From: Stramenopiles sp. TOSAG23-2
Taxonomy: Eukaryota
Direction: 5' to 3'
NCBI GenBank assembly: GCA_900128395.1
Contig: LT649244.1
Location: 47,611-67,610, forward strand
DNA: 20,000 nucleotides
Shown: piece by piece, positions 1,841 through 15,644 of the stretch
Layout of the letters: each line of letters begins with the position of its first letter
How positions within the stretch are numbered: position 1 is the stretch's first letter
Position numbers and translations under genes: made by a program
Notes under the pieces: model-generated
What the model saw: only the letters and a program-made list of their open reading frames with translations
Database searches by the model: none
What the model was told of the DNA's origin: nothing

Positions 1841-2107
1841 GTATATTTGTTTTCTTTCAGTTTCTCTCTTTTTACTATTTTTTTTTCTTTTATCTATATT
1901 TTATTTATATTTGTTGGCTTGTTACAAAGAACGCACTGTTAATGAATTATTAACATTAGTTTTCAGAAAAAATCAATCATTGCCACGTGCTACCGGTACA
2001 TATCATATAATATATATATATACTTCGTATTATATATATATATAATACGTATATCACCAACTTTACTTTATTTCCTGTATATTTATTTAACGTTAATACA
2101 AGTACAT

Positions 2108-4429
2108 TTACATTTTGGCGCCTAAGGTTGCAAAAATACTAGGAGATGCAGGCTCGCCAAATTTCTTTGCAAGTTTTTTTAATTCCCAGTCAGTTGTTAA
2201 TTTATGATGGTTTGGTTCTGCACCTTCCCAATGTGCATCCCATGCAACAGGCGCATCATCAACACTTGCAGTTTTCATTGCTTCCCACATACCAGGACCC
2301 CATCCGGCAGCATTAATCATATTTGTTCCTACTAATGCATGCGGTTCGCCAGTTTCCCCCCGTGGATAGAAGCGTCGAGATCCAGCTCTTTCTAGCAATT
2401 CATCAATCATGCGTGGTACGTTCATGTAGGTATCATAATATGTCTCATCACCATTACCGTAAACAGCATGTTGAAGACCTTTTAAAGGTTTATTTGGATT
2501 TTCTGATGCAGCTTTTAAATGATAATAAAATTCCCAGAAGTTTTTTGGTGGGTTACCATACATGCTTGATGTACATACAACTAAAAATTTCGTATTTTTC
2601 AATGAATTGAAATTAAAATCATTACCAGTAACAATTGAAGCAGGTTTTTCCAAATCGCCTCCCTCTGGGAACATTCCTAAAATATCTGTAGCATCACGCT
2701 CGGAATCACCCATGAAAAAGGATCCGAATACAAGTGCGACATCTTGACCACCAATATCTCCACTATCCATGGCTGGGGCACTATTATCACTTCCTTCTGT
2801 GCCATCAGCTGCTGCTGTTAATTTACCAACTTCCGTTGTTACAGCTTCATCCCATTCGATGATATCAACTTCGTCACCAACAACTTCACCAACTTCTTGT
2901 GATGGTGCAGAGCTATAGGTGATAGTAATAGGATCAGCCCCATTATTCTGTGGAATGGTAATAGTAGTGGTACTACCTGGAACAGTTCCAGTTACAATAG
3001 GCGGTGGAGGTTGTTTTACATATTCAGAAGCAGATGCACCTGCAACACGTCCAAATACAACACATTCAAGCAAAGCTGAGCCACCAAGACGATTACGTCC
3101 ATGGATACCACCAGCTAACTCACCAGCAGCAAATAATCCTGGGATTACACGATTTGAACCATCGTATACACATTCTGATTTTGGACTAATTGCAAGACCA
3201 CCCATTGTGTAATGTACAACTGGGGTAACTTGTGCGACGTAAAAACTGTCATTAATATCAAATGGTGCATTTGTGAAATAAATTTTACCAAATGGATCCG
3301 TACCTTTCTTTGCATAATCATTATATTGATCAAATGATTCTTTTAATTGTGAGGTAGGGATGCCCATTTCTGCAGCAAGGTCAGCACCACTGTCGAAATG
3401 CTTCATAACACGACGGGAGACGTAATGTTTACAATGCCAATCTAAATTTGATGCTGCAGCACTGTTCAATACAAGACGGTATGGTGCTTTGCCGTGTTCC
3501 CACATATTACCGGTTACATAATCACGTTTGCCGATATCATTGCAAAATCGAAAGCCATCGTTACCAAGTAAAATACCACCTTCACCACGCAATGCTTCTG
3601 CTGCTAAAAATTTAGTTTTATTGTCTGGATCATCTGGATTAACAAGACCAGTTGGATGCACTTGTACATGTTTCAACGCAATAGCTTTTGCACCAATATC
3701 CATGGCAATATCAATACCTTCGCCTTGGGAATGGTCACCGTTCGTTGTTGGCAAATGTACTAAATCTGGACGGATTTTTTCCAACAATGAACCTTTATGG
3801 TTGCCGCCAGCACCATAACCACCAGTTGCTAATACAACAGCATCTGCTACAACGGTTTCCATTGCACCATCACCATTTTCAAATTCCACACCAACAACAC
3901 GACCATGTGGATCTTTAATAAGCTTTTTCGCAGAGGCATTGATTACTAAGTCACACGTACCATCTTCGGCATCAGCTAACTGTTCATATTTTTGCATAAG
4001 TGCAGAAGTAATCTCCATGCCTGGAAATTTACCACCAGATTTTGAACGATGCGTACGTTGATTTGTATGCCCACCTAAACGGGATACAGTATCAAGAGCA
4101 AGACCAAAATTATCTTGGATCCAATGTACAGCACCTGCACTATTTCCTGCAATAACTTTTGCAAGTGGATATGGTGTAGGCATTGGACCAGTTTTCACAC
4201 CAGTAGCGGAACGTACGGTATCCTCAAGAAACTGATCAACACTATCTTTCAAACCCATTTTAGCTTGTGTACGACTACCAGCACCATTAATACCAGAAGT
4301 TGCTTTAGTACTATTACCACCAAGGAAAGGATTTTTTTCCAATAATGTTACTTGTACACCATTTTGTATGAGTGTATGTGCGGCTGATAAACCTGATAAA
4401 CCACCTCCAACAACAATTGCGCTTGGCAT
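2108..4429 (-). CDS. Soluble FAD-dependent fumarate reductase (Osm1/Frd1/flavocytochrome-c family) fused to a C-terminal flavodoxin-like domain
   Basis: GGGLSG Rossmann motif, GGNSTKATSGIN, QVHPT, AEALRGEGG, KRDYVT, VHYTMGG and GRNRLGGSALLECVVFG. Pro/Thr/acidic linker at aa ~472-562. Flavodoxin motifs VALVFGS, VVCTSSMYGNPPKN and LKGLQHAVYGNGDETY from aa ~563. C-terminus is AKM. Confidence 0.92.
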   Translation of the reverse strand: MPSAIVVGGGLSGLSAAHTLIQNGVQVTLLEKNPFLGGNSTKATSGINGAGSRTQAKMGLKDSVDQFLEDTVRSATGVKTGPMPTPYPLAKVIAGNSAGAVHWIQDNFGLALDTVSRLGGHTNQRTHRSKSGGKFPGMEITSALMQKYEQLADAEDGTCDLVINASAKKLIKDPHGRVVGVEFENGDGAMETVVADAVVLATGGYGAGGNHKGSLLEKIRPDLVHLPTTNGDHSQGEGIDIAMDIGAKAIALKHVQVHPTGLVNPDDPDNKTKFLAAEALRGEGGILLGNDGFRFCNDIGKRDYVTGNMWEHGKAPYRLVLNSAAASNLDWHCKHYVSRRVMKHFDSGADLAAEMGIPTSQLKESFDQYNDYAKKGTDPFGKIYFTNAPFDINDSFYVAQVTPVVHYTMGGLAISPKSECVYDGSNRVIPGLFAAGELAGGIHGRNRLGGSALLECVVFGRVAGASASEYVKQPPPPIVTGTVPGSTTTITIPQNNGADPITITYSSAPSQEVGEVVGDEVDIIEWDEAVTTEVGKLTAAADGTEGSDNSAPAMDSGDIGGQDVALVFGSFFMGDSERDATDILGMFPEGGDLEKPASIVTGNDFNFNSLKNTKFLVVCTSSMYGNPPKNFWEFYYHLKAASENPNKPLKGLQHAVYGNGDETYYDTYMNVPRMIDELLERAGSRRFYPRGETGEPHALVGTNMINAAGWGPGMWEAMKTASVDDAPVAWDAHWEGAEPNHHKLTTDWELKKLAKKFGEPASPSIFATLGAKM

Positions 4430-4643
4430 AATTGATATCTTTTTTGTTTTAAATATTATTTCCTTTCGTATTGATTTAATGATATATCACGTATATATAT
4501 ATAATTATATATATGTATATATGTGTAAATATATATGTTTGTATATGTCTATATCTTTATATATATATGTATATTTGGATATTTTCATTCATTCTGTGTC
4601 TGACGATTCATGTGCAAATAATCGAATTTTATCATATAATGAT

Positions 4644-5046: not shown

Positions 5047-6039
5047 ATGATCAACATAACAAAACGATTATTTAGTTCGATAAAAGTAATACAACAAATT
5101 GAAACAAAAGTTTATATTATGTCAAAAACAATTAAATTAAATAATAATTTAGCAATACCACAACTTGGATATGGAACATATATGCGGAAAGATACGTATG
5201 AGGATGTTGGTGGTGTGAAGCAAGCTGTATTGAAAGCGTTGGAGATCGGATATCGACATATAGATTGTGCATCGTTTTACAAAAATGAAAAGGAGGTTGG
5301 CCAAGCTATCAAAGAAAGTGGTATTCCAAGAAATGAATTATTTATTACTGGTAAAGTCTGGAATGATTTTCAAGGTCTTGAACGTGCAAAAGTTAGTTTC
5401 TTAAAATCAATGGAAGATTTAGATATTGACTATTTTGATTTATTTTTAGTTCATTGGCCTTTACCAGGGTACCATTGCGAGACATACAAATGTTTAGAGC
5501 AATTGCAAAAAGATGGAAAAGTGAAAAGTATCGGCTTAAGTAATTATACAATTGATGATTATGAAGAGTTGGAAAAAAGTGGAATATCTGTGAAACCTGT
5601 ATGTAATCAAGTTGAAGTGAATCCTGGTTTATATAGGAAGAAAACAATTGATTATTTCATGGAGAAAGATATTATTATTGCTGCTTACAAGCCTTTACGT
5701 GCTGGTAAAATATTAAAAAATCAAACTGTAATTGATATGGCAAGTAAATATAACATATCACCTGCTAGATTATCGATATTATGGGGGTTACAACATGATA
5801 TGATTGTTATACCGAAATCATCGAATCCAAAAAATATGCTAGATAATTTTGTATCAAGTAGTAGTAGTAACGATGATGATAATAACAGTGGTGATGTGAC
5901 AATATCAAAAGAAGATATGGCAACATTAGATGCTTTGACGACGGACGACGACAAAAAAGCTTGGTATGAACATTATCTTAGTCGTCGTGGGCAAGATCCA
6001 CCACCAAAAGGTGAAAAACGGAAATCGATGGAGGAATGA
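5047..6039 (+). CDS. Aldo-keto reductase (2,5-DKG reductase / AKR5-like)
   Basis: IPQLGYGT; catalytic tetrad D (HIDCA), Y (FYKNE), K (ITGKVW), H (LVHWP); IGLSNY, NQVE and IPKS motifs. Second in-frame ATG at 5119. Confidence 0.93.
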   Translation: MINITKRLFSSIKVIQQIETKVYIMSKTIKLNNNLAIPQLGYGTYMRKDTYEDVGGVKQAVLKALEIGYRHIDCASFYKNEKEVGQAIKESGIPRNELFITGKVWNDFQGLERAKVSFLKSMEDLDIDYFDLFLVHWPLPGYHCETYKCLEQLQKDGKVKSIGLSNYTIDDYEELEKSGISVKPVCNQVEVNPGLYRKKTIDYFMEKDIIIAAYKPLRAGKILKNQTVIDMASKYNISPARLSILWGLQHDMIVIPKSSNPKNMLDNFVSSSSSNDDDNNSGDVTISKEDMATLDALTTDDDKKAWYEHYLSRRGQDPPPKGEKRKSMEE

Positions 6040-6045
6040 CTCTCC

Positions 6046-6750
6046 ATGCAAGATAAAATGAAGTTATTAGATTCCATAAATCGTTTGAAATTGTTTCCAA
6101 AAATTTATATTAATAAAAAAATAAATAAATACAGTTTAACAAATGATTGGGATGGAATTGGCAATAACAACGTTGTGGAGGATGATAATAATAATAACTG
6201 TATGAAAACAAATGCATCTGATAATGATATTAAATGTATTCCACCACCAATTTTACCAAGCCAACCAATGTCCATTTGTATTCGAATGGGTATAGGAAGT
6301 TTTAGTAGTTATACACGTCAATCAATTTTACATTGTGGTATAAGTGATTCCAATGGAAAAGTATATCATTTTGATGAAAATGGATATAATAATGAATCTA
6401 ATTGGTATGAGAGTTTATCCATGCAATTAATAGCAATGTCACCGATTAATAATAATAATAATAATAGCAAAGGTAAGAACTATAACGACATAGATGAACA
6501 AATCATCAACAAAGAACAATGGGATGAAAATTTGAAACGATATCATATATATCATCAAAATAATTTACAAAAATGCATTTATCATGCAAAGGAGAATAAT
6601 TGTTATGATTATGTAACTGATTTTTTAAATATGGTACAATGGAATAATTTCACAAACCATACCAAAAATGTCATCGTGAAAACATATTTAGAACCACTGG
6701 TTTTAAATATGGAAAATTATTTGTATATGTGGAAGGAGTTAGTTAATTAA
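6046..6750 (+). CDS. MKRN2OS-like (DUF4796) protein, permuted papain/NlpC-P60-type fold; start codon uncertain
   Basis: LHCGISDSNGKVYHFDENG and YHAKENNCYDYVTDFLN resemble the two conserved blocks of MKRN2OS as I recall them. Alternative ATGs at 6058 and 6202. Confidence 0.65.
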   Translation: MQDKMKLLDSINRLKLFPKIYINKKINKYSLTNDWDGIGNNNVVEDDNNNNCMKTNASDNDIKCIPPPILPSQPMSICIRMGIGSFSSYTRQSILHCGISDSNGKVYHFDENGYNNESNWYESLSMQLIAMSPINNNNNNSKGKNYNDIDEQIINKEQWDENLKRYHIYHQNNLQKCIYHAKENNCYDYVTDFLNMVQWNNFTNHTKNVIVKTYLEPLVLNMENYLYMWKELVN

Positions 6751-12974: not shown

Positions 12975-15644
12975 TCATACCTTTTCTTGAAAACCCGTTA
13001 ATGCTTCTTCCACTTTATCATTTAATTCATTGATAAATACATCTATTTCAACTAATCTATTCTTACCATTTTCCATTTTAATCCATTTTTCAAATTTCTT
13101 TTTTAAAGATTCAAGTGTCATTGGTCTATTGATTAAATCATCACGGAAAATTATATACATGCATTGATTTGTCGCTGAGATTAAATCAAACGTGAAATCT
13201 TCTAACATTTTGGAATCTGTAAAGAAATTCTTGTCATCATCATTATCATCATTGGGGTCATCCTTTTTTAATGATGATACAGGTGGATCTGGAAATTTTC
13301 GCAATATATCCATATAACCATTGTTAAATTTTTCTAGTGTGGCTAAAATAATTTCCTTTTCATCATTGAAAATGTTGCTGTGATTTAAAGCCATTTTACG
13401 ATTAATATTGTTGATAATCGTTCTATCACCACCACCAGTACCACTTCCATCACCTTCATCTTCGTCATCATCTCCATCAAGTTCCATATTATCCTCCAAC
13501 ATATCTTCATCGTATATTAAACCTCCCTTATCTAACACTTCTTCTAAATTCGCAATCATTGCATCGCGTTCTGTTACATATTCTTTTAAATTTGCCTCTT
13601 CCAATTGCGTCAATAACATACAATTGACTAATAGTTTTCTAATTTTAGCCGACAGTTCATATACATCTGAACGATGTATTGGTGTTTCCAATTCACAGTC
13701 ATTAACTTCCTTGCAATACGAATGCGTTAAACCAAACATACCAGGTGCATATACAGGTTTTCCATGCAAATAACATCTACCTGTTACTTTTGTTTTTATT
13801 TTATAATCACCATTTAAATCTGTATATTCATAAATTCGATGTATCATACATAAATCTTCATCTGCAAAATGCATTACAAATTCTTTATTGTTTGCTATAC
13901 AATATGCAACTAAAAATCGATTGCGAGGCTCAAAACAAAGAAATTCTTGCTTCATTCCAGGAAAATACAATTGTCCTGCGCCCCATTTAAATACAGGCAA
14001 GGCTTCCATGTCATCTTTATCCTTCAATGGTGCAAATATACTTCCATTTTCCTCATTTGAAAACTTCTGTGCACTATATACTGTCTTACCATATAATTTA
14101 TTAAATTCCATCACTCCATTTGTTGTTAGATTACAAAATGAATATTGTGAAGGAAGATCGTTATTATCATTTAATTCACGAAAAATGGTATATGTTGTCG
14201 CTTCATCAAAGACGTTCGTATCACCATCCTCGTTAGATGGGCCAATGCCTTGTTTGCAATAAGTACCAATCGATGGCAATGGAATTTTAGTATTGTTGTC
14301 ATTATTATTTACATTTACAATATGATTATTTACCAATTCGTTCCATGAATTCATTTCAAAATCATCATTGCCATAATAATGATTACCATGATAAGATGAA
14401 AACATCATCATTCCAGCAATATTATTCGTATAACCATTCTCATCGACATGGTCACCACCATCACTACCATGATCCTCCTGATCATTGTTGGATACCGATG
14501 ATAATAGATTTTTATCTACATATTCTTGCAAGGTGACGCATATATTACGTGCCATGAACATTGGATCCTCTTGTAACAATACTACTGATTCATCCTCTGC
14601 ATCGTCTACTATATCACCACTAAATTCAAACTTTGCAAAATTTGGTGCAATTTCACCTTTTTCTTCATCGTATTCCGTTACCCATTGATACTCCCTTCCT
14701 GGGCCATTGATACCATCAACTTCTGGAAACAATATACGATCATAATCTGGTATATACGAAAGCCATTGTCGTAACTCTGGATTAGTACTTAACGAGAAAA
14801 AATTACCATCGTGTATACTAGCATTTTCTAATCGAAATGAATTTGCATATGGTTGTGTCGTGATAATATCCATTGCAACATTGCCTTCAATGGATAACCC
14901 GGCAAACCCATTATAATGTATGTCATTGCCTAAAAATATACGATTGTAACTAATATTACCAACTTTAGATGCTTCTGGCATCAACCCATTGATTGGTCCA
15001 AGTACAGTATTCATATCATATGATGGTGTGGAAAAAAATAGCATATTTAAACTATTTTCATACTGTTCCTTATCTATTTTTAACCTATCAGAAAATAATT
15101 GCAAGCATTCCGGTGGCATTCCATCTTCTTCTGATGAAAATGTTAAAAGAGAACACTTATCATCGAAGGAACCTATCATTAATGAAGCTTCCACACCACT
15201 ATCTTTCGTATTTGTTACGTTCAAATCATCTTGTTTGATATTTCTTGAGTTACATAAGTTTATATTATCATTCCCAATAACAATATTGAAATTATCATTT
15301 AATAGAGCTAATATTTTTTTAATATCTTCATCTGTTTGATCTGTTGCGAAGAAAAAAGCAACTAAATGTTTATTTTTATTGTCAAAAATTAATGTATCGT
15401 TTGACTTTATCTTAGTAATTTCATTCGATATTTTGTCAACCAATGGTATGGTTACATCATCAATTAAAAATTCTTTTGATACAAAATGTAAATATCTTTT
15501 ATTATTGTAAAGGTGACTATTATTATTATTATTAAAATGCAGTGATTGTAGATTGGCATTACATAAAAATAAACATTGTCGTCTTGGGCGATATTTATTA
15601 CCAACGCTTCTGAAAAATGGTTTCGTATATTTAGTTAACATCAT
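12975..15644 (-). CDS. FIST-N/FIST-C plus Lon N-terminal (PUA-like) domain protein with presequence-like N-terminus
   Basis: FIST-like blocks MPEASKVGNIS..IFLGNDIHYNGFAGLSI and AGMMMFSS..PSIGTYCKQGIGP..TYTIFRE (aa ~95-490). Lon-N-like LPVF..LYFPG..FLCFEPRNRFLVAYC (from aa ~548). The 889-aa ORF is uninterrupted. Confidence 0.72.
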   Translation of the reverse strand: MMLTKYTKPFFRSVGNKYRPRRQCLFLCNANLQSLHFNNNNNSHLYNNKRYLHFVSKEFLIDDVTIPLVDKISNEITKIKSNDTLIFDNKNKHLVAFFFATDQTDEDIKKILALLNDNFNIVIGNDNINLCNSRNIKQDDLNVTNTKDSGVEASLMIGSFDDKCSLLTFSSEEDGMPPECLQLFSDRLKIDKEQYENSLNMLFFSTPSYDMNTVLGPINGLMPEASKVGNISYNRIFLGNDIHYNGFAGLSIEGNVAMDIITTQPYANSFRLENASIHDGNFFSLSTNPELRQWLSYIPDYDRILFPEVDGINGPGREYQWVTEYDEEKGEIAPNFAKFEFSGDIVDDAEDESVVLLQEDPMFMARNICVTLQEYVDKNLLSSVSNNDQEDHGSDGGDHVDENGYTNNIAGMMMFSSYHGNHYYGNDDFEMNSWNELVNNHIVNVNNNDNNTKIPLPSIGTYCKQGIGPSNEDGDTNVFDEATTYTIFRELNDNNDLPSQYSFCNLTTNGVMEFNKLYGKTVYSAQKFSNEENGSIFAPLKDKDDMEALPVFKWGAGQLYFPGMKQEFLCFEPRNRFLVAYCIANNKEFVMHFADEDLCMIHRIYEYTDLNGDYKIKTKVTGRCYLHGKPVYAPGMFGLTHSYCKEVNDCELETPIHRSDVYELSAKIRKLLVNCMLLTQLEEANLKEYVTERDAMIANLEEVLDKGGLIYDEDMLEDNMELDGDDDEDEGDGSGTGGGDRTIINNINRKMALNHSNIFNDEKEIILATLEKFNNGYMDILRKFPDPPVSSLKKDDPNDDNDDDKNFFTDSKMLEDFTFDLISATNQCMYIIFRDDLINRPMTLESLKKKFEKWIKMENGKNRLVEIDVFINELNDKVEEALTGFQEKV

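Follow-up and report, generated by a model that had tools for sequence, protein, structure and literature searches.

The gene described here lies in a stretch of 20,000 nucleotides (the window) of contig LT649244.1, positions 47,611 to 67,610 of the forward strand, from the assembly GCA_900128395.1 of Stramenopiles sp. TOSAG23-2. It occupies positions 2108-4429 of the window on the minus strand as a single unbroken, intronless frame of 773 amino acids (aa), from ATG to TAA. A Pfam scan of this open reading frame (ORF) places FAD_binding_2 (PF00890) at residues 4-453 (E 8e-74) and Flavodoxin_1 at residues 599-697 (E 5e-11, above the cut-off), and TIGR01813, the NCBIfam model for the flavocytochrome c subfamily, is matched with 379 bits against a cut-off of 285. 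An initial annotation had described one uninterrupted frame with a complete soluble fumarate reductase (FRD) and expected this pair of Pfam domains; both are present. The same scan found no C-terminal haem domain of the cytochrome b5 (b5) type (PF00173) in the ORF, Flavodoxin_1 standing in its place, and no match to FAD_binding_1 or NAD_binding_1. The last three residues of the protein, AKM, form a type 1 peroxisomal targeting signal (PTS1). The features of the gene, all on the minus strand, are the following.

2108-4429, minus strand: whole gene, a fumarate reductase-flavodoxin fusion with a terminal PTS1 (frame, Pfam, spanning RNA contigs)
3014-4429, minus strand: soluble fumarate reductase with flavin adenine dinucleotide (FAD) and clamp domains, residues 1-472 (Pfam, NCBIfam, match to Osm1 5glg)
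3656-3658, minus strand: catalytic H258 (Osm1 alignment)
3596-3598, minus strand: catalytic E278 (Osm1 alignment)
3587-3589, minus strand: catalytic R281 (Osm1 alignment)
3524-3526, minus strand: catalytic R302 (Osm1 alignment)
3212-3214, minus strand: catalytic H406 (Osm1 alignment)
3089-3091, minus strand: catalytic R447 (Osm1 alignment)
2912-2971, minus strand: conserved beta-hairpin of the linker, residues 487-506, from the FRD-b5 parent (alignment, predicted strands)
2801-2878, minus strand: second conserved linker motif, residues 518-543, with the b5/flavodoxin swap point directly after it (alignment)
2747-2800, minus strand: variable Ala/Gly/acidic tether, residues 544-561 (length and sequence variation; model confidence, pLDDT, below 50)
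2264-2746, minus strand: flavodoxin domain of the diflavin-reductase type, as in P450 BM3 and cytochrome P450 reductase (CPR), residues about 562-722 (Pfam, sequence, fold model)
2696-2725, minus strand: atypical phosphate loop GSFFMGDSER, residues 569-578, a subfamily signature (alignment to 1bvy_F)
2120-2263, minus strand: family-specific C-terminal extension V-x-W-D-A-x-W ... H-H ... W-x-L, residues 723-770 (alignment)
2111-2119, minus strand: C-terminal tripeptide A-K-M, the PTS1 (translation)

The fusion gene and its two halves

Contigs from RNA libraries were aligned to the locus for 4 of the 24 listed sequencing runs (X1, X2, X7 and X9). One contig of run X1 covers 2034-4462 and one of run X2 covers 1900-4488, each spanning the whole ORF, and in X7 and X9 contigs run across the linker. 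The linker is thus bridged in all four runs examined, the check by RNA reads that had been proposed for it, and the halves are not split. Split genes and an assembly chimera are ruled out by these contigs together with the homologues, since a search with the flavodoxin region among proteins of 425-1353 aa found PF00890 also present in 27 of 27 matched homologue clusters. Coverage in the four runs ends 24-59 bases upstream of the ATG; a shared stop so near the gene start fits mRNA, although contigs alone cannot prove transcription. The gene is conserved and very probably expressed. The G+C content at third codon positions (GC3) is 0.20 and 0.25 in the two halves of the gene, in line with 0.17-0.27 in neighbouring genes.

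Among PDB structures, yeast Osm1 (5glg, E 1.5e-92) matches the N-terminal part best, followed by Shewanella flavocytochrome c3 (Fcc3), and both rank above urocanate reductase in sequence and fold searches. Residues H258, E278, R281, R302, H406 and R447 align with H281, E301, R304, R326, H435 and R477, the six catalytic residues named for Osm1 in PMC6242907 (papers are cited by PMC number, here and below for excerpts of their text). None of the six varies among the 22 full-length fusions aligned, so that the active-site motifs of the Shewanella flavocytochrome c3 type are intact, as initially annotated. Judged by its sequence, this part is an Osm1/Fcc3-type soluble fumarate reductase with predicted activity. 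The electron-entry residues K42, T44, F135, L275, H335 and Y336 are similar in flavodoxin and b5 forms and the face is largely the same. At eleven positions the flavodoxin fusions have a fixed residue that b5 forms seldom have (for example S142 versus Tyr), and some of these may adapt the carrier docking site. At position 278, a Gly replaces the proton-relay Glu in 15 of 71 FRD-b5 relatives, which keep the other five catalytic residues.

The C-terminal flavodoxin fold, initially placed at about 2743-2270, is borne out by the Pfam match and by a structural model. The C-terminal 217 aa, modelled with an 83-row alignment, reach a pLDDT of 95, and the model matches the flavin mononucleotide (FMN) domains of diflavin reductases (syNOS, NDOR1, sulfite reductase, P450 BM3) with Z scores of 16.1-17.7 and root-mean-square deviations of 2.5-3.4 Å over 141-151 residues. 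These matches cover model residues of about 6-166, corresponding to window positions of about 2264-2746. BM3-type FMN domains rank first by sequence (1bvy_F, E 1.7e-10; profile E 1.5e-16). The ring-holding loop TSSMYGNPP (TASYNGHPP in BM3) is near-invariant in 22 fusions, as is GNGDETY, which aligns with BM3 GCGDKNW and sets the aromatic Y664 opposite the Trp of GDKNW. FMN phosphate loops follow the pattern S/T-x-T-G-x-T/A. In the fusion this loop, GSFFMGDS, has a one-residue insertion relative to BM3, plus Asp575, while S570, G574 and S576 are kept and R578 nearby is invariant; 9 of the 10 positions of GSFFMGDSER are invariant in 22 of 22 fusions. The flavodoxin and catalytic halves are conserved to a similar degree (63-88% and 64-96% identity, respectively), and the charge of the flavodoxin, -8, is similarly acidic to that of the b5 carriers (-6 to -10). 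For the C-terminal extension, common to fusions and free-standing flavodoxins, no solved counterpart was found, the structure matches stopping near model residue 170. Binding of FMN by this half is plausible from these features.

The full-length structure model is mediocre (pLDDT 68.5) and uninformative on domain docking. An alignment-free prediction of the complex of the two halves with FAD and FMN scored 0.01 against a mark of 0.34 and was used neither way.

A strict PTS1 has the consensus S/A/C-K/R/H-L/M, to which AKM conforms. Such a signal is present in 25 of 28 fusions (the query and the almost identical representative of its cluster both counted), with the remaining three ending in AAL, ASL and SSL, and in 63 of the 97 nearest FRD relatives, where many of the remainder are truncated or tandem predictions. 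Among 90 fetched proteins with both halves, near-copies included, 61 have a strict PTS1 and 16 end in ASL. The genome has PEX14 (Pex14_N match, E 8.7e-11) and three acyl-CoA oxidase (ACOX) matches, one of which ends AKM. According to a review (PMC7348727), an FRD-cytochrome b5 fusion is part of the Penicillium microbody proteome, which gives the parent family proteomic support for a peroxisomal location. Import of the fusion into the peroxisome by its conserved PTS1 is the predicted outcome. The initial annotation recognised neither this signal nor the single exchange of b5 for flavodoxin and the free-standing PTS1 flavodoxin family described below.

In the assembly, which is incomplete, no soluble FRD with a PTS1 was found besides the fusion. 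The two other soluble FRDs of the assembly are an FRD-b5 protein without a PTS1 and an FRD-b5-Erv1 fusion. The latter (L004:123-3089, minus strand) has 988 aa, with a signal-peptide-like start, fumarate reductase, a degenerate b5 and an Erv1/ALR sulfhydryl oxidase domain, and is a natural fusion of the Osm1-Erv1 couple.

The stretch is present in 20 of the 24 listed sequencing runs, from 9 studies; every run with an organism label is marine, and seawater RNA libraries are included. The 18S rRNA of the same assembly, on another contig, matches exactly the probe sequence for MAST-4 (marine stramenopile group 4) given in PMC4234645, and the host is for this reason taken as a MAST-4-type heterotrophic stramenopile. 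The GC3 of fusion-bearing sequences ranges from 0.22 to 0.85, which suggests that the fusion occurs in several host lineages. A scan for spliced leaders, as a guide to the hosts, covered 39 of 41 loci and found none. Fusion sequences in public collections are named only 'flavocytochrome c' or similar, and ESM Atlas searches led no further than generic clusters of flavodoxins and of fumarate reductases, at 0.86-0.90.

Replacement of cytochrome b5 by a flavodoxin

The closest relatives without a flavodoxin are FRD-b5 fusions, which share 63-70% identity over 95-100% of residues 1-545. Where the initial annotation saw a flexible linker of about 90 aa, the stretch just before the flavodoxin is indeed a variable tether, but two segments are conserved among the fusions: residues of about 487-506 (TTITIPQxNGADPITITY, strands predicted at 487-492 and 501-506) and of about 518-543 (GDEVDIIEWD..VTTEVGKLTAAADG). 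The hairpin is found in the b5 fusions P0236-P0242 as well. Five b5-bearing sisters have the same hairpin together with the motif ...EW(D)xxVTTEVGKLTxGADG; past this motif their b5 starts at the point where the flavodoxin starts in ORF 2108-4429.

A tree of the FRD domain was made with IQ-TREE from 109 rows (midpoint root; support by the SH-like approximate likelihood ratio test, SH-aLRT, without bootstrap), 17 rows with coverage below 380 aa or tandem domains having been dropped, including 5 partial flavodoxin fusions. The 22 flavodoxin fusions lie on one side of a branch with an SH-aLRT of 100. Their sister is a set of six b5 fusions, with joint support of 100, and the two groups are nested deep in a set of 72 b5-bearing rows. 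The fusion clade also contains five rows without a carrier (P0235, P0243, P0248, P0255 and P0256), which are explained as truncations or as reading frames that continue into an intron. Locus L072 has the start of the FRD in one frame and the remaining FRD and flavodoxin in another, and the P0248 cluster includes a full fusion. In a flavodoxin tree (FastTree, 100 rows, 28 of them drawn at random from the PTS1 matches), 27 fused domains form one clade (99) within a subfamily (99) that also holds free PTS1-bearing and presequence-bearing forms. Repeated independent fusions are ruled out by the single clade in both trees. Since this clade is nested within b5 forms and its carrier-less rows are explained, the flavodoxin took the place of b5 once. 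The event shown by the trees is the replacement of the b5 of an FRD-b5 gene, predicted to be peroxisomal, by a free-standing flavodoxin with the same predicted location.

Free-standing relatives of the flavodoxin half were found by searching 1.84 billion protein representatives with this part of the protein. A search from one member gave 88 matches, 71 of them with a strict PTS1, and a PTS1 is present in 62 of the 65 complete members (200-240 aa, Met start). These flavodoxins of about 210 aa (P0087, P0331-P0400, loci L079-L099) are from marine protists, start with MAPNVALVYGSFFMGD and end mostly in SKL or AKL, and most have the GSFFMGD(S/C) signature and the W-D-A-x-W...H-H C-terminal extension. 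Named members are from Tripos fusus and Symbiodinium pilosum; database labels are 'sulfite reductase alpha subunit-like' or hypothetical. The family is apparently undescribed. Metagenome assemblies hold 41 loci with relatives of the flavodoxin, and the fused copy is the only one found in the host genome. Both parents, FRD-b5 and flavodoxin, were already peroxisome-tagged, and this provides a Rosetta-stone argument for a redox partnership.

A sister clade in the flavodoxin tree (16 rows, support 97) consists of tail-anchored flavodoxins with a hydrophobic C-terminal tail like that of tail-anchored cytochrome b5; examples are P0132, P0151, P0156, P0160, P0172, P0188 and P0220. The presequence-bearing sisters (P0091, P0095, P0096, P0105 and P0404-P0409) have an Arg-rich N-terminus and a charged tail and are mitochondrion-like by eye. 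Two unusual predictions were also seen, each possibly an assembly or prediction artefact: P0097, with six tandem flavodoxin domains, and P0129 (4122 aa), with seven Fe-hydrogenase-like repeats, a flavodoxin and FAD_binding_1. A recent bacterial origin of the flavodoxin was rejected because none of 24 pattern matches in 185,579 prokaryote genomes of GTDB was confirmed as a relative, in a limited test with three exact patterns.

A putative peroxisomal electron sink and its alternatives

The reading judged probable, with some reservation, is that the fusion serves as a fumarate reductase of the peroxisomal matrix with its own one-electron shuttle, and hence as an electron sink, in MAST-4 flagellates and other marine protists. 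The protein would be imported by a PEX5-type route through its C-terminal AKM. The FMN of the tethered flavodoxin would then accept electrons from reduced peroxisomal flavoenzymes, and the tether would let the flavodoxin swing to the face where electrons enter the FAD domain, presumably the site where b5 docks in the parent family and where the second flavin binds in Osm1. There FADH2 would reduce fumarate to succinate by the Osm1/Fcc3 mechanism, the residues for which are observed. The net effect would be that fumarate, in place of O2, re-oxidises peroxisomal flavoenzymes without the production of H2O2. The position of the flavodoxin, exactly that of the haem module in the closest relatives, favours the role of a tethered electron carrier. 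The earlier suggestion of an iron-free intramolecular electron donor is upheld as regards this slot, with FMN binding and electron transfer as predictions.

Candidate donors in the genome would be a PTS1-bearing flavocytochrome b2, acyl-CoA dehydrogenases (ACADs) and acyl-CoA oxidases. Enzymes of the flavocytochrome b2 type are generally known as mitochondrial and linked to cytochrome c. Here two copies (b5 plus FMN_dh; L025:1468-3009 and L026) lie about 11.8 kb apart on one contig, end in SKL and are without a presequence. A strict PTS1 is present at 3 of the 12 ACAD loci examined (L056, L059 and L060). FRD-b5-ACOX triple fusions also occur (P0326 and P0330), the P0326 cluster having a member from Gloeochaete wittrockiana. 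A b5 protein of 226 aa (L023:1093-1773) ends in ARL.

Several observations weigh against a peroxisomal electron sink. FMN binding is not assured, because the phosphate loop is atypical in its insertion and Asp575. The ACOX fusions are only 2 of the 120 listed FRD relatives and are distant from the flavodoxin-fusion clade. Mammalian ACAD11, of the ACAD10/11 type, needs no acceptor in vitro (PMC12440821), which weakens the link to ACADs. A PTS1 was seen on none of the 7 FAD_binding_6 matches in the genome, so that a PTS1-bearing NAD(P)H reductase as donor is unsupported and was set aside; this, with the lack of an NAD(P)H module on the chain, makes a peroxisomal flavoenzyme the likelier donor. 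A catalase-peroxidase-like ORF (L113), one of several such ORFs in the genome, ends in ARL. H2O2 is therefore probably manageable and its avoidance not compelled, and a peroxisome lacking an H2O2 scavenger was dropped as a driver, although no monofunctional catalase was matched in the incomplete genome. No fumarase with a strict PTS1 was found in the genome, where a class II-like ORF (L106, without a presequence) ends in GKL. The cofactor content, activity and localisation of the fusion are all predictions.

The same chemistry could have been selected mainly for the sparing of iron or for life at low oxygen, as flavodoxin replaces ferredoxin, but this is unlikely. The fusion has one haem fewer per enzyme, the labelled runs with the gene are all marine, Osm1 serves anaerobic flavin re-oxidation (PMC6242907), and there is a bacterial precedent for the change from haem to flavin on FRD-like enzymes, for which iron economy was proposed as the reason (PMC8238504). 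However, the host genome has at least 30 cytochrome b5 matches and 6 haem-peroxidase matches, and b5 is kept on both other soluble FRDs, so that a general retreat from haem is not seen. A fixed fusion would also not be switchable with iron status, unlike flavodoxin/ferredoxin pairs. As the gene is further present in the RNA libraries of several seawater studies, the rationale of low iron or low oxygen in the initial annotation is at best weakly supported. It is more doubtful still that the flavodoxin half is a flavin-free or regulatory module, or a passenger peroxisomal protein, with the FRD half using free reduced flavin like Osm1. Such a role would suit the atypical GSFFMGDS loop, past which profile matches to solved FMN domains often begin, and two free-standing members that fall below Pfam Flavodoxin_1 at 1e-5; Osm1 functions without a carrier domain (PMC6242907), and a PTS1-bearing relative without a carrier exists (P0323). 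It would leave unexplained why 22 fusions show little or no variation at S570, S576 and Y664 and in the TSSxYGxPP loop, and why the half is conserved to the degree given above. The fold also superposes on holo FMN domains from strand 1 onward, and the flavodoxin stands in the exact slot of a redox domain.

That the enzyme is cytosolic, or acts on another alpha,beta-unsaturated acid, is highly improbable. The non-strict endings (AAL, ASL or SSL in 3 of 28 fusions, and ASL in 16 of the 90 two-half proteins, near-copies included) could be taken to point to the cytosol, but the terminal tripeptide stays within an S/A-x-L/M pattern while the residues upstream drift, a behaviour to be expected under selection for the signal. 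The substrates of PF00890 enzymes are many (PMC8238504), but at the dicarboxylate site the fusion has all six residues of Osm1, and urocanate reductase ranks below Osm1 and Fcc3 in the searches.

A wider reading than the peroxisomal electron sink is put forward only tentatively. It is possible that abundant marine protists have, in their peroxisomes, an electron-transfer chain that is soluble and free of haem. The PTS1 flavodoxin would be its general carrier from dehydrogenases to fumarate reductase, without O2 or H2O2, an analogue of electron transfer flavoprotein (ETF) or b5 whose sister forms are mitochondria-targeted or tail-anchored. The fusion would then be the Rosetta stone that names the partner of the carrier.

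Known systems, neighbouring genes and significance

By sequence, the fusion belongs to the Osm1/Fcc3 family and descends from FRD-b5 proteins, standing outside the FRD-b5 fusions, the diflavin reductases and trypanosomatid FRDg. The FRD-b5 fusions (for example Penicillium chrysogenum Pc12g03090 of the microbody proteome, and those of Amoeba proteus, Lotharella and Bigelowiella) share the FRD subfamily, PTS1 and carrier position, with the same linker in the sister clade. Their carrier is a haem b5 of about 80 aa, whereas that of ORF 2108-4429 is a flavodoxin of about 210 aa with its own C-terminal extension and PTS1. Yeast Osm1/Frd1 (5glg) is the best solved match and has the six catalytic residues, but is without a carrier domain and sits in the endoplasmic reticulum and mitochondrial intermembrane space (PMC5638582). 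It oxidises reduced FMN, FAD and riboflavin by a second pocket (PMC6242907), of which P162, W295 and F362 align with F135, T272 and H335 of the fusion.

The trypanosomatid glycosomal NADH-fumarate reductase FRDg resembles, in its peroxisome-type organelle and FMN-based relay (PMC8065229), what is predicted for the fusion. In FRDg there are also ApbE, a motif for covalent FMN and a b5-reductase domain that accepts NADH (PMC8065229), none of which is in the fusion by Pfam scan; the fusion would therefore need an outside donor. The best sequence and fold matches of the flavodoxin are the P450 BM3 FMN domain (1bvy_F), with which it shares a short loop, and those of CPR, nitric oxide synthase, NDOR1 and sulfite reductase. 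In contrast to these diflavin reductases, the fusion is without a FAD/NADPH reductase module and has the phosphate-loop insertion, an extra C-terminal extension of about 50 aa, a fumarate reductase partner and a PTS1. The same logic of substitution is seen between Listeria FrdA and Shewanella FccA, where a flavinylated FMN-binding domain replaces a multihaem cytochrome c on a PF00890 enzyme (PMC8238504). The bacterial domain is a covalently flavinylated, extracellular FMN_bind, whereas the fusion has a predicted non-covalent flavodoxin fold and is eukaryotic, predicted to be organellar and the product of an independent event.

In a full-text literature search, to which supplementary tables and most subscription papers do not belong, no paper was found on a eukaryotic fumarate reductase-flavodoxin fusion, in keeping with the initial view that the architecture is unfamiliar among characterised eukaryotic enzymes. 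None was found that joins flavodoxin, a peroxisomal PTS1 and fumarate reductase, or that deals with a peroxisomal acyl-CoA dehydrogenase having fumarate as electron acceptor. Fumarate, flavodoxin and the peroxisome are unmentioned in the excerpts of PMC10268365.

Elsewhere in the window, an aldo-keto reductase gene (5047-6039, plus strand) is divergent from the FRD gene, the two starts being 617 bases apart. A DUF4796-like ORF (6046-6750, plus strand) begins 6 bases past the aldo-keto reductase stop. An ORF of 889 aa (12975-15644, minus strand) has a presequence-like start and is without a Pfam match at E 0.1.

In the usual picture, peroxisomes hand electrons directly to O2, and to our knowledge the re-oxidation of peroxisomal dehydrogenases without ETF or a respiratory chain is poorly settled. 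The gene is a concrete candidate here, with a predicted terminal reductase and carrier on one organelle-tagged chain, in an abundant group of bacterivorous ocean flagellates, and hints at a way for peroxisomes to get rid of electrons in which oxygen takes no part. A possible function also emerges for the family of small PTS1 flavodoxins, which has dozens of members among dinoflagellates and other marine protists. The fusion can further be seen as a natural experiment in which a haem domain has been exchanged for a flavin domain at one linker position, with both forms available.

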